This document shows, piece after piece, positions 7,031-61,872 of a stretch of 64,000 bases of DNA (its first letter is position 1; each line of letters begins with the position of its first letter). A program made the translations under genes and the position numbers. The notes beneath the pieces are model-generated. The model worked only from the letters and a program-made list of their open reading frames with translations, was not told the DNA's origin and ran no database searches. This DNA comes from Bacteroidales bacterium UBA5371 (GTDB taxonomy: Bacteria; Bacteroidota; Bacteroidia; Bacteroidales; P3), in contig DHPF01000017.1 of NCBI GenBank assembly GCA_002407855.1, forward strand, positions 74,383 to 138,382. Direction: 5' to 3'.

Positions 7031-7135
7031 ATATTATTTTTTTTACACTTACAAAAATACTATTTTTATTTATTATTCATTCTTTGTAGTTACATATATT
7101 TCTTAATTGAAAAATGATATTCTACTTTATTATTG

Positions 7136-7143
7136 TATTTTTG
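7136..7143 (+). promoter_or_regulatory. -7 promoter box TATTTTTG upstream of YfcC-like transporter gene
   Basis: TAnnTTTG match 36 nt upstream of the ATG at 7179. Confidence 0.5.
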
Positions 7144-7178
7144 TGCGTTGTTTTATTTAAATTTAAATTTTAGAAGAT

Positions 7179-8777: not shown

Positions 8778-8899
8778 AATAGGATTTAGAGAAACTCAAA
8801 TCAAGTTCTAAAAAATTAAAGTCAAGTTTTAAAAATTTAGAATCAAGTTCCAAGAAATTAGAATCAAGTTCCAAGAAATTATAATCAAATACTAATTTA
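8774..8899. repeat. family-A array, 6 reverse-orientation units (TTAGAATCAAG-type) at 8774, 8795, 8816, 8837, 8858, 8879
   Basis: Exact 21-bp spacing. The first unit contains the TAG stop of the YfcC-like gene. Confidence 0.9.
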
Positions 8900-9397: not shown

Positions 9398-9468
9398 GTT
9401 CAAGATATTTCAAAGAGTATATTTCAATGCTTAATTTGATGGGGAAAAATTTTAAACCCTCAAAAAAA

Positions 9469-9665
9469 GTCCCAATGCCTATTGAAAAGAACCCCAATGC
9501 CTATTGAAATTTTTTCTAAGGCCGTTTAAAATATTTCTAACGGCGTTGAAGAGAGTTCCAATGCTCGTTGAAAAAAATCCAAACGCCTGTTGAAATAAAT
9601 TTCAATAGGCATTGAAAATAATTCTGATAGGCATTGGGATTATTTTCAATAGGCATTAGAATTTT
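9469..9665. repeat. family-B 22-bp-phased array (core CAATGCCTATTGAAA): about 6 forward then 3 reverse units
   Basis: Two near-perfect units at 9469 and 9491, decayed units to 9599, a palindromic junction TTGAAATAAATTTCAA, then TTTCAATAGGCATT copies at 9600, 9622, 9644. Confidence 0.85.
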
Positions 9666-9741
9666 TTTCTGGGGATTGCACATACTTAAAATTGGATAAA
9701 GGGATATAAAGTGTTAGAATTGAAGGGTTTTATCAAGCTTT

Positions 9742-17930: not shown

Positions 17931-18000
17931 CTTGATTCTAATTTTTTGTCTTTTGATTCTAATAAATTGTAATCAAGAGATAATTTTTTAGAATCAAGTT
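17931..18000. repeat. family-A array, 2 forward cores (17931, 17952) facing 2 reverse cores (17967, 17988)
   Basis: 21-bp spacing within each half; symmetric head-to-head arrangement. Confidence 0.85.
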
Positions 18001-24501: not shown

Positions 24502-24544
24502 ATTATAACCCTGTCTTTGGCTAAAAAATAGACTGCATTTATCT

Positions 24545-24625
24545 CTTGATTCTAATTTTCTATCTTTTGATTCTAATTTATTAAAACTTGATTCTAATTT
24601 CCTGTCTTTTGATTCTATTTTTAGG
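24545..24625. repeat. family-A array, 4 forward units at 24545, 24566, 24587, 24608
   Basis: Exact 21-bp spacing of (C/T)TTGATTCTAAT cores. Confidence 0.9.
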
Positions 24626-24799
24626 TTTTTTGGAATAGAGATATTTCTCCTTTGGAGTTTTTTATTTTTAATTTATGTTGGGAATGTATAATCTTTTTTT
24701 TGTGCGAAATACTAATTATTATCTTGTTGTTAATCTGAATTTACGGATTTTGATTGGTCTTTATTTGGGTTTAAATTTGGATAACGATTATTTTTAATG

Positions 24800-35742: not shown

Positions 35743-35823
35743 TTTGATTTCGCTGAAATATCTCTTGATTCTAATTTATTATCTTTTGATTCTAATTTAT
35801 TGAAACTTGATTCTAATTTTGCT
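35743..35823. repeat. family-A array, 4 forward units at 35743, 35764, 35785, 35806
   Basis: Exact 21-bp spacing. 35785-35819 is identical to 39309-39343. Confidence 0.9.
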
Positions 35824-37992: not shown

Positions 37993-39180
37993 TTAATGAA
38001 TTACTTCATACTTCTTAAATACCTTTGTTAGTTTGTCTATGGCTATATCTACTTGCTGATGAGTGTGAGTTGCCATAAGAGAAAAGCGTATTAGGGTAGC
38101 ATCAGGCGAACAGGCAGGAGGAATAACAGGATTTACAAATATGCCTTCTTCGTAAATCTCTTTGGTTATCATAAATGTCTTTTCTGTATCTCTAATATAT
38201 AGAGGTATAATTGGAGAATTGGTTGGACCTATTTCGAATCCATTTGCCTTAAATGCAGCAAGCGAATAATTAGTTATCTGCCACAAATTATCTATTCTTT
38301 GAGGCTCTTGTTCCATTATATCTAATGCTGCAATAACACTTGCAGTTGCAGAAGGAGAAATAGAAGCCGAGAAAATATATGGACGTGAGGTGTGTTTTAA
38401 ATAATTAATTGTTTCTTTATCTGCGGCAATAAAACCACCTATTGCAGCTAAGCTCTTGCTGAAAGTTCCCATAATCACATCAACATCGTCAGTTAGTCCG
38501 AAATGATTGCAGATTCCTCTTCCTCCCTTGCCAAAAACACCTAAGCTATGAGCTTCATCAACATAAATATCTGCATTATATTTTTCTGCCAATTGCTTAA
38601 TTTGTGGCAAATTTGCAATATCTCCCTCCATTGAATAGACTCCATCAACGGCAATCAATTTCAACTCTTGCAAAGGTATTCTTTTAAGAACCTCTTCCAA
38701 AGAAGCCATATCGTTATGCTTAAACTTATAGTTTTTAGAGTAAGAAATCCTTCTTGCTTCAATAATTGAAGCGTGATCTAACTCATCTAAAATCAGATGA
38801 TCTCCCCTACCCAACATAGTTGGTATAGCTCCAATATTAGATTGAAAGCCCGTAGAAAAAACAATAGAGCTTTCCTTCCCTACAAACTTAGCTAACTTTT
38901 CCTCCAACTGAATATGAATATCCAATGTTCCATTCAAAAATGGAGAGCCTGCACAACCAGAACCATACTTTTTTAAAGCCTCTATTGCTGCTTCTATAAT
39001 CTTTGGATGATTGGTTAATCCCAAATAACTATTTGAACCAAACATTAAAACCTTTCTACCATTCATCAAAACTTCACAATCTTGGTCACTACAAATTGTT
39101 CTAAAATAAGGATAAATTCCCATTTCTTTAACTTTTTGTGGCTCTGTGTAGAGAGAAAATCTATTTTTTAATTGCTTCAT
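37993..39180 (-). CDS. spt: alpha-oxoamine synthase of the serine palmitoyltransferase type (PLP-dependent)
   Basis: PLP-lysine motif GTFSKSLAAIGGF matches the SPT-type GTFSKS rather than the BioF/KBL variants. ATG at 39180 is preferred, because the track TTG at 39222 lies inside the promoter box. Confidence 0.8.
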   Translation of the reverse strand: MKQLKNRFSLYTEPQKVKEMGIYPYFRTICSDQDCEVLMNGRKVLMFGSNSYLGLTNHPKIIEAAIEALKKYGSGCAGSPFLNGTLDIHIQLEEKLAKFVGKESSIVFSTGFQSNIGAIPTMLGRGDHLILDELDHASIIEARRISYSKNYKFKHNDMASLEEVLKRIPLQELKLIAVDGVYSMEGDIANLPQIKQLAEKYNADIYVDEAHSLGVFGKGGRGICNHFGLTDDVDVIMGTFSKSLAAIGGFIAADKETINYLKHTSRPYIFSASISPSATASVIAALDIMEQEPQRIDNLWQITNYSLAAFKANGFEIGPTNSPIIPLYIRDTEKTFMITKEIYEEGIFVNPVIPPACSPDATLIRFSLMATHTHQQVDIAIDKLTKVFKKYEVIH

Positions 39181-39219
39181 AATTAAATTATAAATTACAT
39201 CATCTTTTATTTTAGTCTG

Positions 39220-39227
39220 CAAATTTA
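39220..39227 (-). promoter_or_regulatory. -7 promoter box TAAATTTG upstream of SPT operon
   Basis: Plus strand reads CAAATTTA 40 nt upstream of the start at 39180. Confidence 0.55.
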
Positions 39228-39287
39228 CTACTTTATTTTAAAGCATAATGAATTATAGCTTAAAAAATAGCTCTGAGTATTCCAAGA

Positions 39288-39371
39288 TTTGATTCTGAAT
39301 TATTGGAATTTGATTCTAATTTATTGAAACTTGATTCTAATTTGTTGGGATTTGATTCTAATTTACTGAAA
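39288..39371. repeat. family-A array, 4 forward units at 39288, 39309, 39330, 39351
   Basis: Exact 21-bp spacing of TTGATTCT(A/G)AAT cores. Confidence 0.9.
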
Positions 39372-39468
39372 TTTTATCTTTATATAAAATAACTTAGATT
39401 TGGCTACTTGTATTATAATGAAAAGATAGTAAACACTATATCTGATAATTATTTTTTTGTTTTCCTTT

Positions 39469-40278
39469 TCATCTATTAAGAATAAAACTGACCAAATTAT
39501 CTTTCAATCTGCTCCCTCCTATTCTAAAATACTTAGAGTTTAACCTTTGACTTCCCCTAAAATGAGAGAATAATATGTGATATTCTATCGCCTGCTCAGC
39601 TGTTACAATACCTCCTGCGGCTTTAATAGATTTAAGAATTTTTGTTTGATTTTCATAATCTTCAATGGCTTTTAGCATTACTGCAAATGAGTAAATATCA
39701 GCTCCTTTGCTTGTTTTACCGGTTGAAGTTTTAATAAAATCGGCTCCTGCCTCTAAGTTGATAAGGCTTGCCTTGTATACATTTTCTAAGGAGTTTAGCT
39801 CTCCTGTTTCCAAAATAACCTTTAAGGTAATGTCTTTGCAGATTTGCTTTGCTAAGAATGTTTCTTGTGAAACTTCATCAAATTTCCCTTCTAAGAAAAG
39901 CCCTCTATTCATTACAATATCTACTTCCTCCGCACCATTATCAATAGCAAATTTGATTTCATTTAGTTTGAGCTCTATGGGATTTTGTCCTGAAGGAAAA
40001 TATCCTGCAACAACAACCTTTTTTATATCTTTATCCAGCGTATTATTAAGTAATGGCAGGAAATTTGGATAAACACAAAGTCCTGCAACCTTTATATTTT
40101 CTAACTCTTTAATGTGAGAATTTTCTATAAGCTTTCTAATTGAATTCGCATTATCTTCCGAATTTAGAGATGTGAGGTCTAAGCATCTTAAACAATTAAT
40201 TGCAGCATCTTTTCTATTTATAGTTTCTTTTCCCTCTTTAAGGATATTATCAATAATGTTTTTATCTATTTGAATCAT
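39469..40278 (-). CDS. deoC: deoxyribose-phosphate aldolase
   Basis: Schiff-base lysine motif FIKTSTGK. ATG at 40278 is preferred over the TTG at 40314. Overlaps the upstream gene by 17 nt. Confidence 0.85.
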   Translation of the reverse strand: MIQIDKNIIDNILKEGKETINRKDAAINCLRCLDLTSLNSEDNANSIRKLIENSHIKELENIKVAGLCVYPNFLPLLNNTLDKDIKKVVVAGYFPSGQNPIELKLNEIKFAIDNGAEEVDIVMNRGLFLEGKFDEVSQETFLAKQICKDITLKVILETGELNSLENVYKASLINLEAGADFIKTSTGKTSKGADIYSFAVMLKAIEDYENQTKILKSIKAAGGIVTAEQAIEYHILFSHFRGSQRLNSKYFRIGGSRLKDNLVSFILNR

Positions 40279-41425
40279 GCTGGATGTATTGTTGTGAGAA
40301 GTTGGTTTTGGCAAATTGAGGTATATGTCTTGAAGTATGAATATTCTTTTTCAGTATTAGTTTAAATAATAAGTCCTTTTTCCAAGCTGCTTTATTTAAT
40401 TTCTTTCTTTTGATTAAATGTTTTTTGATTAGTTTTATCTTATATCTATCCTTGAAGTCAATATTTTTAGTCTCAAAAATAATATTCCTATTGGCAATAA
40501 TCAAATCTGTTATTGGTATATTCATTGGGCAAATCTTATTGCAATTACCACAAAGAACACAATTAAAACATAAATGCTTGGCTCCATCTATTGTTTCTAA
40601 AAATGGCAATACAACATTAGCCATTGGTCCTGTAAATACATTATTATACGGAGCATCTCCTATCAAAGCATAGATAGGGCAAACCTTTTTGCATGCATCA
40701 CAATCAATACAAGTAAGAGCTTTTCTATGTTCTTTATAATCTAATAGATTACTCCTGCTATTATCTATTATAAATAGTTCAATATTATTTGCCGAATTCT
40801 TTTTAGGAGTTAAGATGGTTGATAAATTTAAAAGTGAAGTTTTGTTTTTATTTATTGAATATAGTGTTGAGAAGAGTTCAATGTCTTCAATATTTTTAAG
40901 GATATTATTAATTGGAAGTACAAATATTTTATACTCTGCTGAAAGAACTAATTCCATTTCTAAAGCAGAGTCAAATACTAAATACAAACTACCTGTTTGA
41001 GCAATTGCATATTTAGCTTCAAAAATAACGCATTCTTTTGATTGAGTATTTATTTGTATTTCGTCTTCTTTAAGGTTTTTATATAGGCCCAATTCTTCCA
41101 TGAATCTACTTTCAAATAAATTAACCTCTTTTATTTTTTTCTCTCTTAAAAACTTTAATAAATCTTCAAAGAACAAATCATAATCTATTTCCCAATTGAC
41201 CTCTGCTTCATTTTCAACAAATTTCTTATCAAATAATACTAATAATTCATCTATATGATTAATGTATTTTTGTCTTAGATTTGCTGCCCTTTTCTTAACA
41301 TAGTTATAGTTTTTAAAGGTTTTAAGCACAATATCATCAATATTGTAAGAAATATCAATATCTTTTGGTTTTTCTAAGGCTCGTTTACAATCGGAGATAA
41401 AGAATTTATACTCATTTGTATTCAT
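40262..41425 (-). CDS. LUD-domain / 4Fe-4S dicluster protein (LutB/YkgF-like)
   Basis: 387 aa with two ferredoxin-type motifs (CIDCDACKKVCP, CVLCGNCNKICP) after a LUD-like N-terminal half. Confidence 0.7.
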   Translation of the reverse strand: MNTNEYKFFISDCKRALEKPKDIDISYNIDDIVLKTFKNYNYVKKRAANLRQKYINHIDELLVLFDKKFVENEAEVNWEIDYDLFFEDLLKFLREKKIKEVNLFESRFMEELGLYKNLKEDEIQINTQSKECVIFEAKYAIAQTGSLYLVFDSALEMELVLSAEYKIFVLPINNILKNIEDIELFSTLYSINKNKTSLLNLSTILTPKKNSANNIELFIIDNSRSNLLDYKEHRKALTCIDCDACKKVCPIYALIGDAPYNNVFTGPMANVVLPFLETIDGAKHLCFNCVLCGNCNKICPMNIPITDLIIANRNIIFETKNIDFKDRYKIKLIKKHLIKRKKLNKAAWKKDLLFKLILKKNIHTSRHIPQFAKTNFSQQYIQHDSNR

Positions 41426-41458
41426 TACAAGAAAGTATTATTTTATAATAAAGTATAT

Positions 41459-41908
41459 TTATAATAGTATGGATATTTTTTCTACTCTTCTTTGATGTCT
41501 GCCACCTTCATAAAGAGTGTTTAGAAATGTTTCAGCTATTTTTAACCCTTCTTCTTCTGTTATAAACCTTGCTGGTAAAGCACAAATATTTGCATTATTA
41601 TGTTGGCGTGCTAATATTGCTATTTCTTCTTTCCAACATAAAGCAGCTCTAACTTTTGAATACTTATTAGCAGTCATTTGAACACCATTACCACTTCCAC
41701 ACATAATTAATCCAATTTCATAAACTCCTTCATTAATGTCTTTTGATAAAGGATGAATATAATCAGGATAATCACAACTATCTTTTGAAAATGTTCCATA
41801 ATCTTTAAATTTATATCCTTTTTTAGAGAGATTTTCTTTTAGGAATTCTTTTAAATCATATCCTGCGTGATCGGAAGCTATAGGAATAATTTTTGAATTA
41901 ATTGTCAT
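41459..41908 (-). CDS. rpiB: ribose-5-phosphate isomerase B
   Basis: 149 aa; RpiB/LacAB family layout (ASDHAGYDLK, CGSGNGV). Confidence 0.9.
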   Translation of the reverse strand: MTINSKIIPIASDHAGYDLKEFLKENLSKKGYKFKDYGTFSKDSCDYPDYIHPLSKDINEGVYEIGLIMCGSGNGVQMTANKYSKVRAALCWKEEIAILARQHNNANICALPARFITEEEGLKIAETFLNTLYEGGRHQRRVEKISILL

Positions 41909-41986
41909 ATTGTTTATAACTTTTAATTGGTTAATACTTCTATTATTTTATTTATTTATTTGATTTTAAAGCTTATTAAATAAAAG

Positions 41987-41994
41987 CAAAGATA
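41987..41994 (-). promoter_or_regulatory. -7 promoter box TATCTTTG upstream of rpiB
   Basis: Plus strand reads CAAAGATA about 80 nt upstream of the start at 41908. Confidence 0.4.
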
Positions 41995-42404
41995 GTATAT
42001 ATTTTACAACTATTTTAATTTCAAAGCTAAAAGTTTTAACATATAAATTGTTTATATCTATCTTTTTTTGTTGAAAATTTGTTTATCAAATTAATATCAT
42101 TTAATTTTGTTGAAAAATTATGAGATTATAAAGAAGTTATAAAGATGATTATTCACAGAAAAATAATAAATAATATAAATTAGTTTTCAACAAAATTACT
42201 TATTAGTATATTTGTTAGTAAGTATATAAATTAACTAATAATAAGTTTATTATAGTATAATATTTTATTAATAACTTCTTTATAAACTATATATTTTAAG
42301 AAAACAAAAAATAAGTTAGTTTAGTTTTTAACTCAATTAACAGGCTATTATTATAATCATATTTATATAAAAGTAATTATTAAATATATAAAGAAAAAAT
42401 AAAG

Positions 42405-43352
42405 ATGAATACAAAAGAGACAATTCAAAAGATATTAAAGCTTAAAAAGAAAAAGAATGCAATTATATTAGCACATTTTTACCAGATACCAGAAATACAA
42501 GATATAGCGGATTTTGTTGGTGATAGTTTGAATTTAGCACAAAAAGCAAAGGACACAGAATCTGACCTTATACTATTTTGTGGAGTGCATTTTATGGGAG
42601 AAACAGCAAAAATACTTAATCCTAAAAAGAAAGTTATTATACCAGATATGGATGCAGGTTGCTCCTTAGCAGACTCATGCCCAGAGGAAGACTTTAAAAA
42701 ATTCAAAGAACAATATCCAAATCACATAGTTATTTCATATATAAATTGTAGTGCAAAGATAAAAACATTATCTGATATGATATGTACGTCAGGAAATGCT
42801 TTACAATTAGTTAATTCATTACCAAAAGATCAGAAGATTATTTTTGCTCCTGACAAAAACTTAGGAGGTTACCTTAATAGAATAACTGGTAGAGATATGG
42901 TTCTTTGGGATGGAACCTGCGAGGTACACGAGTTATTAACAGCAGAATACACTCTCAAACAAAAAAAATCTCATCCTGATTATCTCTTAATTGCACATCC
43001 AGAATGTAATGATGCAGTGCTTCAAATTGCAGATTATGTTGGTTCAACAGCAGGAATGATTAACTTTGTAAAAGGTCATAATCATAAAAAGTTTTTAGTT
43101 GCAACCGAATCAGGAATTGTTTATAAATTAAAGAAGGATAATCCAGACAAAGATTTCATAGTAGTAACCCAAGATGAAACTTGCTCATGTAATGATTGCA
43201 GGTATATGAAATTAAATACTCTTGATAAGGTTTTAGCTTCATTGGAAGAAGAAAAATATGAAATTATACTTGACGATAAATTAATTGAAGAGGCTAAAAA
43301 ACCAATTATAAAAATGCTTGACCTTTCAAGAGAACTTGGAATAATAAAATAA
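42405..43352 (+). CDS. nadA: quinolinate synthase
   Basis: 315 aa; full-length NadA-like sequence (ILAHFYQ, GVHFMGETAKIL, three conserved Cys regions). Confidence 0.9.
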   Translation: MNTKETIQKILKLKKKKNAIILAHFYQIPEIQDIADFVGDSLNLAQKAKDTESDLILFCGVHFMGETAKILNPKKKVIIPDMDAGCSLADSCPEEDFKKFKEQYPNHIVISYINCSAKIKTLSDMICTSGNALQLVNSLPKDQKIIFAPDKNLGGYLNRITGRDMVLWDGTCEVHELLTAEYTLKQKKSHPDYLLIAHPECNDAVLQIADYVGSTAGMINFVKGHNHKKFLVATESGIVYKLKKDNPDKDFIVVTQDETCSCNDCRYMKLNTLDKVLASLEEEKYEIILDDKLIEEAKKPIIKMLDLSRELGIIK

Positions 43353-43643
43353 TGGATTATTAGTATTAAAATTTGAAATTACTCAAAAAGGATATAAAAA
43401 ATTAATATTAATATTTTAACATTTAAATTATAATAAACATCTTAATAATAGCTAAATAACTTTACTAAATTATAATTTAGAGAGTGTTTTTTAACATTCT
43501 GAGCAAAAAAAAATCATAAAGAAGACCAAGAATACTCATATAATAGTTAATAAATCTTAATTTTATATTGGTGTAATAAAATAGAATCAAATTCTATTTT
43601 TTAAATAGTCTAATATAAAAAGAAAATGAAGTTTTAAAATCTA

Positions 43644-44255
43644 ATGACTAAAAAAATTATTATAACAATAATTCTGATTTTCTTTTTCAAAATTTCCTTC
43701 TCTCAAAACTTTAAAGAGATTTTTCTTAATATGGATTGCAGAGATAAAGTATGGATAATTACAAGACCCTCAACAGCCATAAAGACAAAAAAGATTGCAA
43801 AACAAGTATCTAAATTATCAAGTAATTATCAAAAAGACAAATATTCTGAGTCCACTAGCTACGACCAAGAACAAGATATATTTAGGCATATTTTTTTAAT
43901 GTACAAACTCTCTTCTAAAATAGGGATTGATAAATCAAGAAGAATTGGAGATATATACGAGAGATATAATGAGAATATTTTTTATAAAAAATCTAATTCT
44001 GGATACGATAAGGCAGGAGAAATGATGGATAAATTCAATAACGAAATTGGATTATATCTATTTATGAAATTAGGAAAAGTACATGATGAAATAATAATAC
44101 AAGAAATTGGGAATCAGATAAAAGAAGGAAACGCAAGAAAAATAAAGAAAGATTCTAAAAACAGTAGTTTAACAATTGATAACAAGATAATTAAAGATAG
44201 TATTTGGAAGAAAAATTGGGAAAATGAGAGAGTTTTAATCCAATCTAACAAATAA
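43644..44255 (+). CDS. hypothetical secreted protein
   Basis: 203 aa with signal peptide. The DIFRHIFLMY segment is reminiscent of D-x-FRH motifs in DUF6973-type proteins (weak). Confidence 0.5.
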   Translation: MTKKIIITIILIFFFKISFSQNFKEIFLNMDCRDKVWIITRPSTAIKTKKIAKQVSKLSSNYQKDKYSESTSYDQEQDIFRHIFLMYKLSSKIGIDKSRRIGDIYERYNENIFYKKSNSGYDKAGEMMDKFNNEIGLYLFMKLGKVHDEIIIQEIGNQIKEGNARKIKKDSKNSSLTIDNKIIKDSIWKKNWENERVLIQSNK

Positions 44256-44280
44256 AAACACTAAAATAATACATAAAACA

Positions 44281-45552
44281 ATGAAACCAAGATTATTAAT
44301 ACTGATAATTCTATTCTCAAACATATTAAATGCTCAATCTTATAAATATGCACACTATTGTTTGGACTCTTTAATTTCAAAGGACTTTAAAGGCAGAGGC
44401 TATCAAGAAGATGGAGACAGAAAGGCAGCTAATTTTATTGAAAGTGAACTTAAAAACAACGGGGTTAAAGCTTTGGTAAACAATGTTTATCAACAAAAAT
44501 TAAAGATAAATATTAATAATATTGAATCTTCAAAACTAAAACTTCATTCAATTGATAGTTCGTTTATGAAGTTAGGAGAAGAGTTTTTAGTTTATGGATC
44601 TTCACCGAGTATAGAGCTTAAAATCAAAAATATAAAGCTAATAAAAGTAGATTTTTCAAAAGCAAAGTATATAGAAAATTTAGAAAAATACAAGGATAAA
44701 GTTCTTTTATTTGATGTGAAAGAGGTTGATTATATGAAGGTTCATAGCTTTATAAGACTATTAAATGAAAAGAAAATTTCACCTCAAATTTTTATTATTC
44801 AGAATTGTGGGAAGATGCAATTCTTCTCTGGACGAGTAAAGTATAAGTTTCCTGTTCTTATGCTTAAAGATAAAGAGTTTAGTAGGAAGATTGACTATTT
44901 AGAATTATCAATTAAATCTAAATGGGTAGAAGGTTATGAAACTCAAAATGTTTGGGCAATGGTCGAAGGGACAACACATAAGGATAGTTTTTTTGTTTTT
45001 ACGGCCCATTACGATCATTTAGGAAAGATAGGAGATGATTGTTATTTTCCAGGGGCAAATGATAATGCCTCAGGCGTTGCAGTACTTATGGATATGGCAA
45101 AACATTATGCCCAAAATCCATCAGAGTATTCCATCGTTTTTGTTTTTACAACCGCAGAGGAATTAGGACTTGTGGGAGCGGAGTATGCTGCTGAAAATCC
45201 GTTAATTGATTTAAGTAAAGTGAAATTTTTGTTTAATTTGGATATGTGTGGAACGGGCTCAGGAGGAATAGCCTTAATTAATGGTGAAAAAGAGAAGGAA
45301 GCCTCTAAGCTTATGGTAGATATAAATAAAGATAAGATATATTTTAATGAAATCAGAATAGGAGGGGAGTCTTGTAATTCAGACCATTGTCCATTTGTAA
45401 TGAGGGGAGTTCCAGCTTTATTTCTTTTCACTTTTGGCTGCGAATACAATGAATATCACACTGTTTACGATAACGGAGAGGGGCTCTCCTTTACCAAACA
45501 CCTTGATTTCTGCAATATTCTTAAAGATTTTATCGCCTCATATAAGAGATAA
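44281..45552 (+). CDS. M28-family zinc aminopeptidase
   Basis: FTAHYDHLG, GANDNASGVAVL and TTAEELGLVGAEY metal-ligand motifs. Confidence 0.8.
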   Translation: MKPRLLILIILFSNILNAQSYKYAHYCLDSLISKDFKGRGYQEDGDRKAANFIESELKNNGVKALVNNVYQQKLKININNIESSKLKLHSIDSSFMKLGEEFLVYGSSPSIELKIKNIKLIKVDFSKAKYIENLEKYKDKVLLFDVKEVDYMKVHSFIRLLNEKKISPQIFIIQNCGKMQFFSGRVKYKFPVLMLKDKEFSRKIDYLELSIKSKWVEGYETQNVWAMVEGTTHKDSFFVFTAHYDHLGKIGDDCYFPGANDNASGVAVLMDMAKHYAQNPSEYSIVFVFTTAEELGLVGAEYAAENPLIDLSKVKFLFNLDMCGTGSGGIALINGEKEKEASKLMVDINKDKIYFNEIRIGGESCNSDHCPFVMRGVPALFLFTFGCEYNEYHTVYDNGEGLSFTKHLDFCNILKDFIASYKR

Positions 45553-45586
45553 CAAAAAGATAATTGCAATTAACCAATAAAAACTT

Positions 45587-45970
45587 TTATTTAGAAATAC
45601 TAACTATTTCAAATTCAGCATATATTCCATAGGCTGGTCTAGGGAAATCATATCTTAAATCATGTTGATGCCCTTTAATATTAACCTTTATTGGAGAATC
45701 ATTTTGGTTATATCCAATATCTTTTATCTTTTCCGGGTTACAAACAAAATATGTCTCAGGCCAACCCTTATCACTTGGAGTAACATTAGTTAATGCGTAA
45801 TATCCTTGGTACACACCCTCAGACACATAGCCTAAAATATATGTTCCACTTATTTGATTTGGATTGATAATCTCTGTAGAGCAATTACATTCATCATCAT
45901 CACAAGAAACTATGCTTGTGAAAAATATTGCAGATAATACAATAATTGAAAATAACTTTACTTTTTTCAT
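45587..45970 (-). CDS. small lipoprotein, hypothetical
   Basis: 127 aa; signal peptide ending in the IVSC lipobox. Confidence 0.55.
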   Translation of the reverse strand: MKKVKLFSIIVLSAIFFTSIVSCDDDECNCSTEIINPNQISGTYILGYVSEGVYQGYYALTNVTPSDKGWPETYFVCNPEKIKDIGYNQNDSPIKVNIKGHQHDLRYDFPRPAYGIYAEFEIVSISK

Positions 45971-46279
45971 AATATAAAATATTTATTAATTAGAAATCAA
46001 TGATTTAAAGTATAAAACATCTAATATTTAGATTATATTTTTATAAATCTTTCTTATCCCAATACTTCTAAAAGCCTTATTTTCCACTTGTGTTTATTAG
46101 GTTCATTTTCTATTTATTTTGCAGAAAAAGAGTACTTTATAAGTATAACGAGGCAAAGATAGACTTTGTTTCAGTTTGAACCAAATATTTTTGTAAATAA
46201 TTTTAGATAAAGGTTTTCAGGGATTTAAAAATTTGTATTTGAAAATAGTGAATTAGAATAAAGATATAGGAAATTATCT

Positions 46280-46342
46280 TTTGATTCTAAGAAATTAAAT
46301 CTTGATTCTAATTTTTTCTCTTTTGATTCTAATTTTTCAGTT
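46280..46342. repeat. family-A array, 3 forward units at 46280, 46301, 46322
   Basis: Exact 21-bp spacing. Confidence 0.9.
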
Positions 46343-50999: not shown

Positions 51000-51082
51000 T
51001 TAGAACTTAGTTTTACGGATTTAGAACTTGATTCCAATTAGACAGAACTAAGTTCTAATTTTACCAAACTAAGTTCTATTCA
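51000..51082. repeat. family-A variant array (core CTAAGTTCTAAT / TTAGAACTTAG): 2 reverse (51000, 51021) facing 2 forward (51048, 51069)
   Basis: 21-bp spacing within each half; located between convergent sppA and queG. Confidence 0.8.
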
Positions 51083-55856: not shown

Positions 55857-56921
55857 ATGAAAATTGCGGCATTGGTTTCGGGAGGTGTGGATAGTTCGGT
55901 TGTGGTTCATCAGCTAAAAGAAATGGGCTACGACCCTACAATATTCTACATTAAAATAGGAATGGAAGACAAGGATGGTTATATTGACTGCCCTTCGGAA
56001 GAAGATATTGAGATAACTTCCTATATTGCCAAGAAATATGCTTGCAAATTTGAGATTGTTTCGCTTCAAGAGGATTATTGGAAGGAGGTTGTCTCCTACA
56101 CAATTGAGGCTGTTCGCAGGGGACTTACACCCAATCCAGATATGATGTGCAATAAGCTGATTAAGTTTGGAGCCTTTGAGAGAAAATGGGGAAAGGAGTT
56201 CGATAAGATTGCAACAGGACACTATTGCACAACGACTAAGATAGGGGAGAAGGTATTTCTCTCCACGGCAAAGGACAAACAAAAAGACCAAACTTATTTC
56301 TTGGGTCAGATAAACTATATGCAGGTTTCAAGATTAATGTTTCCTATTGGTAATCTCCTAAAATCTGAGGTTAGGAGTATTGCAAAGGATAATCATCTCC
56401 CAAGTGCCTACCGCAAGGATAGCCAAGGGATTTGTTTTTTAGGAAAGATAAACTATAATGATTTTATTCGCAGGTATTTGGGCGAAAGAAAAGGGGATAT
56501 TATTGAACTTGAAACGGGGAAAAAGATAGGCTCGCATAATGGATACTGGTTCCACACCATAGGACAACGCAAAGGACTGGGTTTGAGCGGAGGCCCTTGG
56601 TTTGTAGTTAGGAAAGATATAGAAGAAAATATACTCTACGTCTCACAAGGATACGACCCTCAAACTCAATACGGAAGGATAGTGAACCTAAGTGGTTTTG
56701 AGTTTATTACAGAAGATGTCTGGGGGAATTTTAATGACGAAAAACAAATAATGTTCAAAATCCGACATAGCCCAGAGTTCATTAAAGGAAAAGTAAGAAA
56801 AATTAAAGAGATATATACCATAGAATCAGAAGAAAAAATTCAAGGAATTGCCTCAGGTCAGTTTGGTGTGATATACGATAATGAAGGAAAACTATGCTTG
56901 GGTTCAGGCGTAATTATTTAG
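55857..56921 (+). CDS. mnmA: tRNA 2-thiouridine(34) synthase
   Basis: PP-loop motif [14 protein letters not shown] at 55857 is preferred over the TTG at 55842. Confidence 0.9.
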
Positions 56922-57531
56922 AATTCAACCTCTCTGCTCTGCGAAGAAGCCTGAGAATAGCCCTCTCTTCTTTGGCAATTTTCAACTCCTTAGTAACCCG
57001 ACGATTAATCTTTTGCAATTGCGTTAAATCGCTAATTCCCAATAGTTCAAGCTCTCTTAAAAACAATAAAGCACAAGCATAAGCATCCGAATCAGCATTA
57101 TGATGCTCCAACTCAATGTTTTCCTGCTTGCAAAGGAAATCTAAGGAAGCTTTCTTTGAGTCCTTCCAAACAATCCTTGCAGTACGATAAGAACAGAAGT
57201 AACGAAATTTTGGCTCCTCCAACTTATATTGCCCCAGGGTCTTACGCAAAACCCTTATATCAAAATCCGCATTATGAGCAACCAAGGTTTGATTCTCAAT
57301 AAAGGGCTTAATCTGGTGCCAGAGTTCATCAAACTCTGGTTCAAATTCAACATCCTCTTTGTGAATTCCATGAATCTTTTGTGCATAGAAGTGAAAATAA
57401 GGATAACAGGAAGGCTTAATCAGCCAATGTTTAACCTCCACAACCTTAGAGTTCCTCACAAGAGCAAGACCCAAAGAACAAGGATGAAAACTATCAGCAG
57501 TCTCAAAATCAATGGCAACAAAATCTATCAT
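56914..57531 (-). CDS. DnaQ-like 3'-5' exonuclease (DEDD family)
   Basis: ExoI motif [10 protein letters not shown]; later HNADFD and HNADSDA motifs; 205 aa. Confidence 0.8.
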
Positions 57532-57597
57532 AAACCGAATTAAAGTATTAGAAATTAACCTCTAAGGCCGCCCCTATGGAAGCCAAATACAATTGTG

Positions 57598-57605
57598 CAA
57601 AGGTA
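57598..57605 (-). promoter_or_regulatory. -7 promoter box TACCTTTG upstream of exonuclease gene
   Basis: Plus strand reads CAAAGGTA 67 nt upstream of the start at 57531. Confidence 0.4.
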
Positions 57606-57690
57606 GGAAGTTTTTTAATACTAATATAAATTTTTAACCCCAAGTTCCAAATTGCGATTATTGAATTAACACGTAGGGGATTGGAATTAA

Positions 57691-57765
57691 TTGGGCGAAC
57701 ACATTGATTTATTGGGCGAACACATTGATTTATTGGGCGAACACATTGATTTATTGGGCGAACAC
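57691..57765. repeat. family-C array: TTGGGCGAACACATTGATTTA, 3 perfect plus 1 partial unit, 21-bp period
   Basis: Direct reading; units start at 57691, 57712, 57733, 57754. Confidence 0.95.
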
Positions 57766-57824
57766 ATAGGTTCGCCCCTACAAACATTGAATTAACACGT
57801 AGGGGCGAACCTATGTGTTCGCCC
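57756..57824. repeat. perfect compound inverted repeat: 26-nt arms, 17-nt spacer, each arm itself an 8-bp GC-rich hairpin
   Basis: 57756-57781 GGGCGAACACATAGGTTCGCCCCTAC is the exact reverse complement of 57799-57824. Confidence 0.95.
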
Positions 57825-58000
57825 TAAATATCATATATTTGCCCAAAATATTTATATGTTCGCACCTAATATCCATATCCCAAAACAAAATATCCGTAAT
57901 AATCCAGAAAATATCCATCCTCCAAAACAAAACAACCGCCTCTGCCCAAAAAACAACCATAAAAAACCAAAAAATAACCTCCCCACAAAAAACAAGTCCC
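57812..58000. repeat. decaying reverse-orientation family-C units that keep a 21-bp phase
   Basis: TATGTGTTCGCCC, then AA(T/C)A(T/A)CC-type remnants at 57827, 57847, 57868, 57889, 57910, 57931, 57952, 57973. Confidence 0.7.
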
Positions 58001-58036
58001 ATTAAAAAACATTTAAGTGGAGTTTAAATTTGCTCA

Positions 58037-58330
58037 GGTTCCGTTAAAAAACGCTCCATGTTCCGTTTAAAGCACTTTTTTACCTCAAAAACGCCCCTTT
58101 CTTCCCTTTGCTTATACCCTAATTCCATATTTAAATCACTAAATTCCAGCCTGTTGCCATTAAAGAAAATCCCTATTATTTTTAACGGAACCCAAGCAAA
58201 TTTTAACGGAACCTGAGCGAAATTAGGTTCCGTTAAAAAACGCTCAGGTTCCATTAAAAAACGCTCAGGTTCCGTTAAAATTCGCTCAGGTTCCATTAAA
58301 AAACGCTTAGGTTCCGTTTAAGTTCAATCG
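58037..58330. repeat. family-D array (core GGTTCCGTTAAAAAACGCTCA): 2 forward, a degenerate stretch, 2 reverse, then 5 forward units
   Basis: Forward cores at 58037 and 58059, reverse AACGGAACC at 58184 and 58205, forward cores at 58226, 58247, 58268, 58289, 58310 (exact 21-bp steps). A 14-bp perfect inverted repeat sits at the junction (58201-58238). Confidence 0.9.
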
Positions 58331-58351
58331 GGTTAAGTTTCCTTTTATTTT

Positions 58352-58435
58352 ATCTCCATTAAATAATGCGGAAACGAAACTATTTGATAGAAAATCTCCA
58401 TTAAATAATACGGAAATGAGATTATAGGATAGAAA
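58352..58435. repeat. 42-bp (2x21) imperfect direct duplication ATCTCCATTAAATAAT(G/A)CGGAAA...
   Basis: Copies start at 58352 and 58394. Confidence 0.8.
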
Positions 58436-58506
58436 AAATCCACGAAACAAATTTTTTATTCCTTTTGGAAATTTTCAAACCTAAGGGTAAGTGCCTGAAT
58501 ATAAAT

Positions 58507-60534
58507 CTATTTATTGTAGGAAGCTAAGCCCTTTTCTAAAAATGAAACAAAATTATCAACACTCCTATCATAACCTTTTGGAGTGTTAAGCAAATTCCCT
58601 TCGGCATCCATCAAAACATAAAGAGGCTGAGCATTAGCATTATAGGTCTCTATCTGATAGTTGTGATTCTTCTTGCCAAGTGTCTTTACTACACTCCCGT
58701 CTTTAAGGGTTACCCACTCGTTCTCAGGAAGTTTAATCCAATTGGCATCTGCATATAGGGCTACCATAACATAATCTTGTGTGAGTATGGTTTTAACTCG
58801 TTTGTCCTCCCAAACATAGTATTCCATCTCGCGACAATTGGCACAGGTCTTGCCCGTAAAGTCCACAAAGATAGGCTTGTTTACTTTCTTGGCATAGGCC
58901 TTAGCTTCTTCAAGGTCGAAAAAGCCTTCAAAGCCAGTAGGGAAATGAAGCAAATCGGCATATTTCCTATTGGCTGGAAGGGAATTAGGATTGGTTTCTT
59001 GGGTATAGGATTTGTTCGCATTTTCAAGGATTGAACGCTCTATATTAAAGTCTTGTGTTGTCATAGGGGGAACGTAGCCCGAAATCGCTTTTAGGGGTGC
59101 TCCCCAAAGTCCTGGCAACATGTAAAGAGAGAACGAAAAGGATATTATGGCAAGGAATAATCTGCCTACTCCAATTTGTTGGAGCTCACTATCTCCCTTG
59201 AATTTCAGCTTGCCAAGTAGGTATAGTCCCAAAAGTGTGAAGACAACTATCCACAAAACTAAGTAGGTTTCTCTGTCCAAAAGTCCCCAGTTGGCACTAA
59301 GGTCTGCCATTGAGAGAAATTTTAGTCCAAGGGCTATTTCTAAAAATCCAAATACAATCTTAGTTGTGTTTAGCCACGAGCCAGACTTCATCTTTGTAAG
59401 CATATGAGGGAACAAAGCCAAAAGGGTAAATGGTAGGGCAAATCCAAGGGCAAATCCTATCATGGAAAAGAAGAATACTAAGCTATTGGTTGAGCTGGAT
59501 GCAACGCCCATTAGGGCGGCTCCTAAGATTGGGCCTGTGCAGGAGAAGGAAACTAATACGGTTGTTAGTGCAATAAAGAATGCTCCTATATATCCTCCTT
59601 TGTCGGCTCCTTTGTCTGATTTGTTTATCCAAGAAGAAGGTAGGGTTATTTCGAACATCCCAAAGAACGAGAAGGCAAAAAGCATAAAGATAATAAAGAA
59701 AAGTATGTTTGGAACCCAGTGGGTTGATATTATATACATTGCGTCTTTGCCTAAGAGTAAGGTAAGGGCTAAGCCAAGTACTGCAAAGATAAATATGATG
59801 GAGCCTCCAAAGAAGAAGGCTTCTTTTAGTCCTTGTTTTCTGCTTTTCTTTCCTTTCATAAAGAAACTTATGGTCATGGGAACCATAGGGAATACGCATG
59901 GGGTTACAAGGGTTAAAAGTCCTGCTCCAAGGGAGATAAGGAATATCATAAGCATAGAATCGGTTTTTTCTTTTTCTTTCGTGGTAGGTTCAATTATGGA
60001 ACTCTCCGAAAGAACTAAGGTCTGACTCTGGGTGATTGACTCTGATATGGTTGGAGTGGTATCTTCTTCCGTTTTAGATGCTTTTGGGTTGCCTTTAACT
60101 TCAAAACTAAATGCTACATCGTCAGGAGGAATGCAAAGTCCTTTCTCGCAGAGCTGGAAATTAACGTTACCTTTTATTTTGAAGTCCTTTTCGCTTCTGA
60201 TTTTTATCTTTTGACGAAAAATAACGGAGCCATCAAAATGGCGTGTGGTGTCTTTTGCGTATATGTCGTAGGTAGAAATTGCTTTGGGTTCTAAAACATT
60301 TCCTATTCTTTGGTAATCTTGGCTTTTTTCGAAGGTAAATTCTATTGGGAGTTCGGTTCCTTTTGTGTGTTGGGAATAAATATGCCATCCATCTTTTAAT
60401 TTCACCCTCAGCTCTAACTCTGCAATTGAGTCGTTAATCTTATTGGTCTTGAAAGTCCAAGAGGCTTGCGAAAAAGCGTTCAAACTCCAAAGAGAAAGAA
60501 GGCTAATTGCTAATATAAGTTTTATTTGTTTCAT
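58507..60534 (-). CDS. dsbD: DsbD-like thiol:disulfide interchange membrane protein with C-terminal thioredoxin domain
   Basis: 675 aa: signal peptide, TM Cys motifs (TPCVFPMVP, FSCTGPILG), C-terminal CxxC (TCANC). Confidence 0.85.
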   Translation of the reverse strand: MKQIKLILAISLLSLWSLNAFSQASWTFKTNKINDSIAELELRVKLKDGWHIYSQHTKGTELPIEFTFEKSQDYQRIGNVLEPKAISTYDIYAKDTTRHFDGSVIFRQKIKIRSEKDFKIKGNVNFQLCEKGLCIPPDDVAFSFEVKGNPKASKTEEDTTPTISESITQSQTLVLSESSIIEPTTKEKEKTDSMLMIFLISLGAGLLTLVTPCVFPMVPMTISFFMKGKKSRKQGLKEAFFFGGSIIFIFAVLGLALTLLLGKDAMYIISTHWVPNILFFIIFMLFAFSFFGMFEITLPSSWINKSDKGADKGGYIGAFFIALTTVLVSFSCTGPILGAALMGVASSSTNSLVFFFSMIGFALGFALPFTLLALFPHMLTKMKSGSWLNTTKIVFGFLEIALGLKFLSMADLSANWGLLDRETYLVLWIVVFTLLGLYLLGKLKFKGDSELQQIGVGRLFLAIISFSFSLYMLPGLWGAPLKAISGYVPPMTTQDFNIERSILENANKSYTQETNPNSLPANRKYADLLHFPTGFEGFFDLEEAKAYAKKVNKPIFVDFTGKTCANCREMEYYVWEDKRVKTILTQDYVMVALYADANWIKLPENEWVTLKDGSVVKTLGKKNHNYQIETYNANAQPLYVLMDAEGNLLNTPKGYDRSVDNFVSFLEKGLASYNK

Positions 60535-60576: not shown

Positions 60577-61872
60577 CTATCTTATCCATAAGGAAGGGTT
60601 TAGTATGGTGTTTCCTTTCCAGATTTGGAAGTTAAACTCCGAAACGTTATCGTTGTTTGTGTAAACTTTCCCTAAGGTTTGTTTTGTTGCGACCTTTGTT
60701 CCCAAAGAAACATTAACTCCAGAAATATTGGTATAAACGCTTAGATAGTCTCCATGACGGAGGATTATAACGCTTTGCCCGTTTGGTCCCTTGAATATCT
60801 TTGAGACCACTCCTTCAAAAACAGCTCTGATTTCGGCTCCTTTTGGGGTGCGGATATCTATTCCGTTGTTGTCAATGGTGATTCCTTTTATGTCAGGGTG
60901 AGGATGTTTCCCGAAATTGCTTGTAACAACTCCTTGCTGGGTTGGCCAGGGGAGTTTCCCTTTATTTGCCGAGAAAGTATTAGAAAGCTTTACTTCCTCA
61001 GGGGTAGCACTCATCACGTATTTTGTTGCCTCTGACGTTTTATCCGCACTCTTGGTCTTGCTGCTCTTGGAGCTTTCTTCCTTAGCTTTCTTAGCTTTTG
61101 CTGCAATTGCTGCTTGTTTTCTGACCTCTTGTGCAATTGCTGCATTGATTTCGTTTTGGAGTTTTTTCCTTCTGGCTTGTTTTTCTTTGATTTGCTTGGT
61201 GAGTTGTTTTTCTTTTTTGCTAAGCTGGTTAATATTCTTTTGCTTAACTTTTTCTTCTTGGGTCAAGCTCTGTTTGTTCTTCTCTTCTTGTTGTAGCAGG
61301 CTTTCTTGGTTCTTTTTCTTTATTGAAAGCTCGTTGGTCTTCTTCTCCAATTCGTCTGACTTACTTTGAATATTTTGTATCATATTCTTTTGCCTGTTGC
61401 CATACTGACGAAAGAAAACATATCTCTGGTAGGCTTGACGATAGTTCTTTGAAGAGAAGATAAATAGGATTTTATCGGTAGAGGTTTTATTCTTTTGGGC
61501 ATAGCGAAGCATTTTGGCGTAGTCTTGCTTCAATACTTTTATCTCTTGATTGATTTCAACGATAGATTTCTGAGTGCTGCGGATTTCTCCGTTAAGCATA
61601 CTCATCTGTTGTGAAATATTATTGATAAGTTTTTGACGAGAGGCAATTTTTTTCTTTAAGATAGAGAGTTCTGATGCCGATAATCTCTTGGTGTTCTTAG
61701 TTTCTTTAAGGATTGCGTTAATTGCATTGATTTCTCTTTCTATTTTAGCTTTTTCGTTTTCTAATTTCTGCCTATCCTGAGCATTGGAATAAAAACAAAA
61801 TACAAGTAAAAGACAGGTTAGAGTAAATGTCTTTAAATTAAATGGTTTAATATGATATTTTGAGTTGAACAT
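60577..61872 (-). CDS. M23-family murein peptidase with N-terminal coiled coil (EnvC-like)
   Basis: 431 aa: signal peptide, long K/Q/E coiled coil, C-terminal LytM/M23 domain (GIDI, HGDYLSVYTN). Confidence 0.82.
   Translation of the reverse strand: MFNSKYHIKPFNLKTFTLTCLLLVFCFYSNAQDRQKLENEKAKIEREINAINAILKETKNTKRLSASELSILKKKIASRQKLINNISQQMSMLNGEIRSTQKSIVEINQEIKVLKQDYAKMLRYAQKNKTSTDKILFIFSSKNYRQAYQRYVFFRQYGNRQKNMIQNIQSKSDELEKKTNELSIKKKNQESLLQQEEKNKQSLTQEEKVKQKNINQLSKKEKQLTKQIKEKQARRKKLQNEINAAIAQEVRKQAAIAAKAKKAKEESSKSSKTKSADKTSEATKYVMSATPEEVKLSNTFSANKGKLPWPTQQGVVTSNFGKHPHPDIKGITIDNNGIDIRTPKGAEIRAVFEGVVSKIFKGPNGQSVIILRHGDYLSVYTNISGVNVSLGTKVATKQTLGKVYTNNDNVSEFNFQIWKGNTILNPSLWIR

Follow-up and report, generated by a model that had tools for sequence, protein, structure and literature searches.

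In Bacteroidales bacterium UBA5371, the gene-free gap between an RNase T/DnaQ-like exonuclease gene and dsbD is packed with repeat arrays. We analyzed it within a 64,000-nucleotide stretch of contig DHPF01000017.1 (the window; all coordinates refer to it unless a locus is named). Our analysis suggests that this block is probably a compound of two kinds of selfish-type non-coding repeat element, gathered in a permissive gap downstream of dsbD. By its structure, the left part is a GTAG-tagged doublet of repetitive extragenic palindromic (REP) hairpins resembling a REPIN, and the right part is one copy of a dispersed, array-rich element of 0.4–0.8 kb. The original prediction, made from the bare sequence, had compared the arrays to iterons or centromeres specific to this locus. 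We found no support for a dedicated or locus-specific iteron, centromere or origin role. The core module of the right part recurs in other contexts at 90–99% identity, the core of array (i) is the arm of a REP found across phyla, similar arrays occur genome-wide and the content of the slot turns over among relatives. Moreover, there is no signal from rep, par or recombinase genes or from a DnaA-box cluster. All these observations argue against such a role.

The repeat block between the exonuclease gene and dsbD

The gap (57532–58506, 975 bp) is the largest of the 48 gaps in the window. Gap lengths have a median of 38.5 bp and are at most 150 bp in 34 of the 48 cases, in line with the expectation that most would be shorter than 150 bp. 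All four array systems that had been described, referred to here as arrays (i) to (iv), were recovered where predicted by Tandem Repeats Finder (TRF), a repeat finder and pattern searches, and their cores are indeed unrelated. The 21-bp phase was also borne out. For the whole block, the autocorrelation at lag 21 is 0.52, compared with 0.28 ± 0.015 in shuffled sequences. TRF reports only 57816–57878 of array (ii) (period 21, 67% matches). Over 57815–58000, the autocorrelation reaches 0.53 (lag 21) and 0.55 (lag 42), versus 0.32 ± 0.034 in shuffles, and the phase of this decayed array is therefore real.

Exact copies of the window proteins are also present in the uncultured Bacteroidales metagenome-assembled genome GCA_002424135.1 and in JGI and ENA metagenomes. 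We compared the block in these three independent assemblies (L001, L002 and L003, respectively). All of them match it base for base except in array (i), which is one unit shorter in L002 and L003 and contains an N-gap in L001. Since the same block is found in three independent assemblies and its phase is far above chance, it is not an artefact. At this level of divergence, variable number tandem repeat (VNTR) behavior is limited to array (i), the sole variable part of the block among the assemblies compared.

There is no credible open reading frame (ORF) in the block. The 90-aa ORF reported by a gene caller on the minus strand (58024–58296) translates the repeat units (MEPERILTEPERFL...) and has in-frame stops in the element copies of L128 and L162, and a 52-aa plus-strand ORF of the module was rejected as a gene because it is truncated in L128. 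Rfam gave no match for the whole window at the gathering threshold, and at a relaxed E-value the block produced only generic hairpin matches to eukaryotic miRNA models. No tRNA or tmRNA was found. Neither sigma-70 promoters nor intrinsic terminators were predicted above shuffle expectation, and no terminator-like site was seen.

The block is delimited by the following features:

56914–57531, minus strand: RNase T/DnaQ-like exonuclease gene, left neighbor of the block
57598–57605, minus strand: likely −7 promoter box of the exonuclease gene, TACCTTTG, detected as a TAnnTTTG match; the repeat block is bounded by it on the left
58507–60534, minus strand: dsbD, right neighbor of the block, with its stop at 58507

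The assignment of the box at 57598–57605 to the exonuclease gene is likely, and TAAATTTG is found at the equivalent place upstream of the orthologous exonuclease gene in relatives. Genes around the block comprise the exonuclease gene, mnmA, dnaE, dsbD, an M23 peptidase gene, dksA and lspA. The window as a whole has a GC content of about 33% and carries ordinary cellular genes, mostly housekeeping or metabolic. As had been noted, no rep, par or recombinase gene is adjacent; the 48 long ORFs scanned in the window include no rep, par, recombinase or transposase gene and encode either ordinary cellular proteins or proteins without a Pfam match. Within the M23 peptidase gene, a 31-bp tandem repeat was observed at 61087–61152 (2.1 copies, 83% matches).

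The REP hairpin doublet and the dispersed element

The left part of the block (57660–57830) contains the following features:

57660–57679, plus strand: ATTGAATTAACACGTAGGGG, a 20-bp direct repeat made up of the doublet spacer and GTAGGGG, in the first of its two copies, which are 100% identical at 57660 and 57786 (repeat family D8); a truncated REP tail to the left of array (i)
57686–57755, plus strand: array (i), three perfect 21-bp units TTGGGCGAACACATTGATTTA, the fourth unit being the intact REP
57756–57781, minus strand: left REP hairpin, GGGCGAAC-ACATAG-GTTCGCCC followed by CTAC (GTAG on the minus strand), an inverted copy of the right REP
57782–57798, no strand: 17-nt spacer between the inverted hairpins
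57799–57824, plus strand: right REP hairpin GTAGGGGCGAACCTATGTGTTCGCCC, that is, GTAG-GGGCGAAC-CTATGT-GTTCGCCC

Each REP (type GTAGGGGC) carries a GTAG tag and has a stem of 8 bp that encloses a loop of 6 nt. The doublet is predicted to fold as a single long hairpin (−41.2 kcal/mol as single-stranded DNA, z = −7.8). Its GTAG ends point inward, making it a tail-to-tail homodimer in published terminology (PMC3733652). Array (i), delimited by TRF at 57686–57767 (period 21, 3.9 copies, 98% matches), has perfect 21-mers starting at 57691, 57712 and 57733, and its fourth copy runs into the hairpin. The unit consists of the 5′ arm of the left REP, part of the loop and a 9-nt linker.

The same hairpin is found far outside this lineage. 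An identical 26–29-mer is present in several IMG/VR prophage contigs of 35–58% GC, with near-identical variants in contigs of up to 70% GC, and an identical REP also occurs in the Calditerrivibrio nitroreducens plasmid NC_014749.1. BLAST of the block against plasmids and phages matched the REP alone, in this one plasmid. In these prophage contigs and the plasmid, the REP is mostly an inverted pair, and in the prophage contigs tested it sits in intergenic spaces of Mu-like and P2-like prophages. Moreover, compensatory stem variants (GAAC/GTTC, AGAC/GTCT, GGAC/GTCC, AAAC/GTTT and AATC/GATT) were seen in 20 or more contigs. When papers were searched for literal occurrences of the REP sequence or of its translations, there was no match.

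Half-REP arrays are not unique to the block either. At positions 406–485, L096 has four perfect 20-bp copies of GCGAC-GGGCGAACACACAGG (linker, arm and loop) that close in a full REP, an independent occurrence of the amplification seen in array (i). L114 has 23-bp copies of the REP 3′ half that lie behind it and are decaying, mirroring the first units of array (ii). Two further arrangements were observed. In L122 (2306–3077), seven tandem 110-bp units, each with two inverted REPs, occupy the usual place of the tape-measure gene in a P2-like tail module, with the gene for the tail assembly chaperone on one side and gpU on the other. In the plasmid NC_014749.1 (L174), inverted blocks of 7–8-bp repeats (GTTCTAAC/GTTCAAC type) at 3840–3930 and 7090–7160 flank a region with the REP doublet and an IS200/IS605 tnpA–tnpB pair.

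The right part of the block (about 57830–58440) contains the following features:

57815–58000, plus strand: array (ii), decayed, 21/42-bp phase, detected by autocorrelation (repeat family D6)
57922–58335, plus strand: core module of the dispersed element
57995–58075, plus strand: 80-nt segment identical in all subfamily-1 copies, with forward units at 58037 and 58059
58025–58032, plus strand: −7-like box TAAATTTG (Bacteroidetes type) inside the 80-nt segment, from the motif scan; a putative promoter element
58072–58178, no strand: central non-repetitive spacer of about 110 nt, conserved in length between subfamilies and divergent in sequence
58179–58219, minus strand: two reverse units TTTTAACGGAACC..., forming an inverted junction with the forward array
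58224–58330, plus strand: array (iii), five forward 21-bp units AGGTTCCGTTAAAAAACGCTC (TRF period 21, 4.5 copies, 87% matches)
58352–58436, plus strand: array (iv), two 42-bp units with core CTCCATTAAA (period 42, 2 copies, 86% matches)

The units of array (iii) share the core GGTTCCGTTAAAA. Its forward copies are at 58037 and 58059 and then, at exact 21-bp spacing, at 58226, 58247, 58268, 58289 and 58310; reverse copies occupy 58180–58192 and 58201–58213. Nine of the 11 matches to this core in the window fall in the block (2.2 expected by chance). As RNA, the reverse-unit region is predicted to be strongly folded (z = −5.45). In viral contigs, the core gave two lone matches within coding sequence, which we judged to be due to chance.

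A metagenome scan with the core of array (iii) revealed further copies of the module, with identities to the window of 99% (L138), 98% (L173), 97% (L125), 91% (L128 and L149) and 90% (L158). None of them shares flanks with the window. Seven different flanks were distinguished among these copies: NqrA, HU-HIG/SdhB, RluA and ORFs of 444, 589, 287 and 213 aa, the last four without Pfam assignment. Together with dsbD and the exonuclease gene on the two sides of the window copy, this makes nine flanks and therefore at least five loci. A second, more divergent subfamily was found in three further contexts (L124, L141 and L162); the two subfamilies align without gaps over about 330 nt. L124 and L138 reside on one 110-kb contig. 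In addition, L138, L158 and L162 carry arrays of another core of this genome, TTGATTCTAA, which places these copies in the same or a sister species. In L125 (895–1332), L128 (3559–3996) and L149 (3230–3667), a gene for a 145-aa HU-HIG DNA-binding protein (PF18291) lies about 0.5 kb from the module, beside sdhB; this may be a coincidence, or the product may be a candidate binding protein.

Array (ii) had been read as about eight decayed reverse copies of array (i). Its first two to three units do resemble the REP 3′ arm, but the remainder is an A/C-rich array (AAAAYAWCCRT type) belonging to the dispersed element. The A/C-rich 21/42-bp array is also found elsewhere without the REP. It accompanies every copy of the module, and homologous arrays differing in unit number lie to the left of it in L125, L158 and L128, with two more units in the window than in L158. 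On the other side, an array of the core CTCCATTAAA is present in most copies; its period is 42 in the window, and 21 bp in the arrays that lie right of the module in L125, L128 and L158. Since left and right arrays accompany the module in other copies, arrays (ii), (iii) and (iv) are parts of one element. The original prediction had named alignment of the block to a known MITE (miniature transposable element with inverted repeats) or insertion sequence in relatives as evidence against its proposal. This is essentially what we observe, though the element has not previously been named.

Arrays of 21–23 bp across the window and the lineage

The block is exceptional in size, as had been claimed, but not in kind: nearly all gaps in the window longer than 150 bp hold a 21-bp array. 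One core, TTGATTCTAATTT, forms such arrays in at least eight other gaps:

1978–2011, 8799–8895 (reverse), 17932–17976 and 24540–24632, mostly plus strand: TTGATTCTAATTT/TTGATTCTAA arrays in 21-bp phase
35759–35819, 39287–39374, 46270–46335 and 51028–51078, plus strand: TTGATTCTAATTT/TTGATTCTAA arrays in 21-bp phase

In this family the core, TTGATTCTAA(TTT), is invariant, and the linker is of one of two subtypes, TATCTY or TGAAAC. Seven of the eight loci are plus-oriented, whatever the gene strand. The array at 24540 has its unit subtypes in the same order as the one at 35759, a sign that arrays are copied as wholes. The core TTGATTCTAA is confined to this species and its nearest relatives. An unrelated core, CCAATGCCTATTGAAA, is found at 9460–9670, where about six forward units at 21–22-bp spacing meet three reverse units at an inverted junction, so that forward and reverse units are arranged as in array (iii). 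The long gaps of the window also include those of a low-GC stretch at 39000–46000 (24–30% GC versus about 34% elsewhere), which encodes rpiB, nadA, a DUF6973 gene and an M28 peptidase gene.

The preference for this unit length is a property of the lineage. Among intergenic arrays with a period of 9 or more in 262 kb from this clade, 33 of 39 have periods of 21–23 bp, and 24 of exactly 21 bp. In contrast, only one of 26 intergenic arrays falls in this range in 580 kb from outgroup Marinifilaceae and Prolixibacteraceae. The favored periods in these outgroup loci (L037–L083) are 27 bp (seven arrays) and 42 bp (four arrays), and other Bacteroidales lineages may have preferred unit lengths of their own. 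Inverted copies were found beside 20 of all 44 clade arrays and, equally often, for shuffled control words (20 of 44). Because of this, we claim a foldback architecture only for the cases that were read directly.

The slot downstream of dsbD is itself subject to turnover. In L011, L014, L015 and L026, the gap measures 20–60 bp. In other relatives it is 240–650 bp long and occupied by arrays of different cores: GGTGGCAGGATGT in L004, TATGGTCGTACC in L013, AAGATGTACATC in L008, L012, L022 and L023 (4, 4, 4 and 1 copies, respectively) and GA(G/C)ATGGGTATGTC in L006 and L009. These arrays are often bounded by long inverted repeats; the one in L006 lies between the arms of a perfect inverted repeat, about 35 bp in length. 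Palindromic cores GAGATGGGTATGTC and GCTAAGATGTACATC, in one to four copies at 22–23-bp spacing, were seen in L006 (8190–8370), L008 (8224–8312), L007 (6276–6320) and L023 (8220–8250); they show perfect conservation, next to randomized linkers of 7–8 nt. The closest relatives, L036 and L005, lack arrays (i) to (iv), indicating that the content of the focal block is recent.

Origin of the block and competing explanations

How might such a block have arisen? In the left part, the 5′ arm and loop of one REP hairpin would have been tandemly duplicated to give array (i), and the 3′ arm of the other hairpin would have given rise to older, now decaying duplicates at the start of array (ii). The right part is one copy of the dispersed element, consisting in order of a variable A/C-rich 21/42-bp array, the 80-nt segment, the spacer of about 110 nt, two reverse and five forward GGTTCCGTTAAAA units and a variable CTCCATTAAA array. 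We propose that hairpins and inverted junctions stall or misalign replication, so that a segment of about two helical turns beside the hairpin is re-copied. New units would then be born at the hairpin and older ones would decay outward, while whole elements could spread to other intergenic sites by mobilization in trans or by recombination. The block might also affect expression, by giving the dsbD mRNA a 3′ structure, by insulating against the exonuclease promoter or by supplying a promoter that points outward.

The nearest published analogue of the right part is BrickBuilt of Porphyromonas gingivalis, a minisatellite within a MITE. Its 23-nt units consist of a conserved and a variable half and are accompanied by leader and tail segments; the element is present in 19 intergenic copies and shows promoter activity (PMC4596501). 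The same species has PgRS 41-nt repeats and 22-nt repeats (Klein et al. 2015, PMC4596501). Both BrickBuilt and the present element belong to Bacteroidales hosts, are strictly intergenic and species-specific, reach about 1 kb and attract spurious gene-caller ORFs. In both, units of 21–23 nt with a conserved and a variable part follow each other head to tail without spacers, and non-repetitive segments recur together with the arrays; here, these are the 80-nt segment and the spacer of about 110 nt, at five or more loci and at three of the second subfamily. Comparison with the published description of BrickBuilt also gives differences. The element studied here has no recognizable IS5-type terminal inverted repeats, its unit is 21 rather than 23 nt, several unrelated cores occur with forward and reverse units around an inverted junction, and it is joined to a REP doublet.

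For the left part, the closest counterparts are GTAG-tagged REPs, bacterial interspersed mosaic elements (BIMEs) and REPINs, the last reportedly described by Bertels and Rainey in 2011. Likenesses include a GC-rich stem-loop that is about 26 nt long and has GTAG at its end (an imperfect palindrome in the 20–40-bp class), the inverted doublet with a short spacer and one-hairpin fold, and the compensatory stem variants. Clustering by tandem reiteration of REPs and flanking DNA is likewise known from REPs and BIMEs. In the GTAG-tagged REP superfamily, both head-to-head and tail-to-tail dimers and tandemly reiterated clusters have been reported (Di Nocera et al. 2013, PMC3733652). On the other hand, the tandem units here are half-REPs, not whole REPs, and an identical sequence is found across phyla and prophages, whereas classical REPINs are vertically inherited and lineage-specific.

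Several observations weigh against a compound of repeat elements, or limit what can be concluded from it. The REP is present at one locus in the window, and about 1 Mb of loci from relatives and metagenomes contains no copy. Moreover, no gene for a REP-associated tyrosine transposase (RAYT, a Y1 HUH transposase) was detected among the 48 scanned window ORFs or beside the REPs in the prophage contigs tested. Given the single locus in the available sequence of the lineage and the lack of a RAYT gene, membership of the doublet in the RAYT-mobilized class is structural, not proven. For the dispersed element, neither terminal inverted repeats nor target-site duplications could be defined; on both sides, homology is gradually lost in arrays that evolve fast. 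The alignable region stops at about 57922 and 58335, where its two ends are not inverted copies of each other, and the true ends may lie further out; transposition is therefore not established. Flanks are shared among L125, L128, L158 and L173, and since such combinations could be metagenome assembly chimeras across the repeat, the number of loci is a minimum estimate and not a map. The sharp 21-bp preference across unrelated cores does not follow from such a compound alone. Finally, in L008 and L006, respectively, all 15 of 15 and 14 of 14 core positions are invariant across four units, and the 7–8-nt linkers are near random. Plain slippage with subsequent neutral decay cannot yield this pattern, which points to selection on the cores.

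The contrast between cores and linkers in L006 and L008, together with the 21–23-bp quantization, keeps alive the main rival explanation, according to which the arrays would be functional protein-binding sites of operator, iteron or nucleoid-organizing type, each with a core of 13–15 bp. With a spacing of two helical turns, the bound proteins would all face the same side of the DNA and could bind cooperatively or bend it, and such a function would be compatible with mobile elements. The core TTGATTCTAA is invariant in more than 18 units at six loci with variable flanking positions, many cores are palindromic (for example, AGATGTACATCT, GAGATGGGCATCTC and TATGGTACGACCATA), the 80-nt stretch does not vary among copies with about 10% difference elsewhere, and the HU-HIG gene lies close to the module in three loci. 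The relatives' palindromic cores of 14–17 bp, three to four per array with variable spacers of 6–8 bp and a period of 22–23 bp, may be likened to lambdoid operator arrays (OR1–3 and OL1–3), though the relatives' loci lack a repressor gene or phage context. However, cores are specific to a species or even a locus, so that many cognate proteins would be needed, and no candidate binding protein is encoded in the window. The orthologous arrays of L012 and L022 differ in cores as much as in linkers, and recent amplification of a master copy would also produce invariant cores. We consider binding sites unlikely as the explanation of the arrays, although the cores may be sites of protein binding. A related suggestion, which we put forward only tentatively, is that the quantization marks a system for DNA processing or DNA binding that Bacteroidales share and that is as yet undescribed. 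Such a system could be a nucleoid protein or enzyme which measures two helical turns and both builds and uses the arrays, the block being its largest local product. What suggests such a system is the combination of unrelated cores, invariant cores with randomized linkers, growth from hairpins or inverted junctions, and clade restriction, echoed by the 22-, 23- and 41-nt repeats of P. gingivalis.

Other explanations fare worse. The module could be a non-coding RNA gene or family, with transcription starting at the box at 58025–58032 and running through the arrays, whose motifs and hairpin would act as RNA. The position of the box within a perfectly conserved segment, the strong predicted RNA fold and the length and architecture common to both subfamilies would fit, as would the activity of BrickBuilt segments as promoters in both directions (PMC4596501). 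Yet chance alone gives about two TAnnTTTG sites per kb of this genome, the fold reflects units pairing with their inverted copies with no independent covariation signal, and the Rfam and terminator searches were negative, making an RNA gene very improbable. It is also highly improbable that neutral replication slippage alone, with neither a mobile element nor a function, produced the arrays. It would account for the one-unit variation of array (i) between assemblies and for the decay of array (ii) with distance from the hairpin, but not for cores that stay invariant while linkers are saturated with changes, for the shared subtype order at 24540 and 35759 or for a sharply quantized, lineage-restricted distribution of periods. 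Recurrence of the module with different flanks contradicts slippage alone and could be reconciled with it only if all the extra copies were assembly chimeras.

A chromosomal replication origin, terminus or centromere-like partition site at the block is extremely unlikely. Directly phased repeats in a large gap, in a window that also encodes dnaE and mnmG (gidA), might suggest one, and plasmid iterons and parC/parS-type centromeres likewise have direct repeats of about 20 bp in a phase of two helical turns, some of them accompanied by inverted copies. Here, however, several unrelated cores stand side by side in a multi-copy element, with no adjacent rep or par gene and no AT-rich unwinding element. 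Sites with at most one mismatch to the DnaA box TTATCCACA number 32 in the window, against about 20 expected by chance, with none in 57532–58506. GC skew, which had been proposed as a check of proximity to the origin or terminus, follows the gene strand, with no switch at the block and no origin or terminus signal. Furthermore, the arrays are absent in the closest relatives, and there is almost no gap in L014, L015 and L026. A CRISPR-like reading of the core and variable-linker arrays was rejected, as linkers are 7–8 nt long, a cas gene is lacking and linkers do not differ within young arrays. A reading as multi-site ends of a Tn7-like or Mu-like transposon is not supported, since a genome has too many unrelated cores for it and a transposase gene is absent.

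The preferred reading, a compound of repeat elements, invokes a mechanism that is ordinary in kind. It does not explain the quantized character of the arrays at the level of the lineage, which is apparently undescribed. In practical terms, large 'empty' gaps in this uncultured Bacteroidales group represent repeat elements rather than missing genes, and gene callers add spurious ORFs to them. Array (i) is a potential VNTR marker and, at the same time, a breakpoint for short-read assemblies. One REP hairpin sequence is common to distant phyla and prophages, and at least two unrelated genomes have tandem arrays of half-sites that it seeded. A minisatellite of the BrickBuilt type, hitherto described in Porphyromonas, is here lineage-wide and sharply quantized in length. 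If the unit length does have a dedicated molecular cause, this would be a new piece of Bacteroidales chromosome biology.

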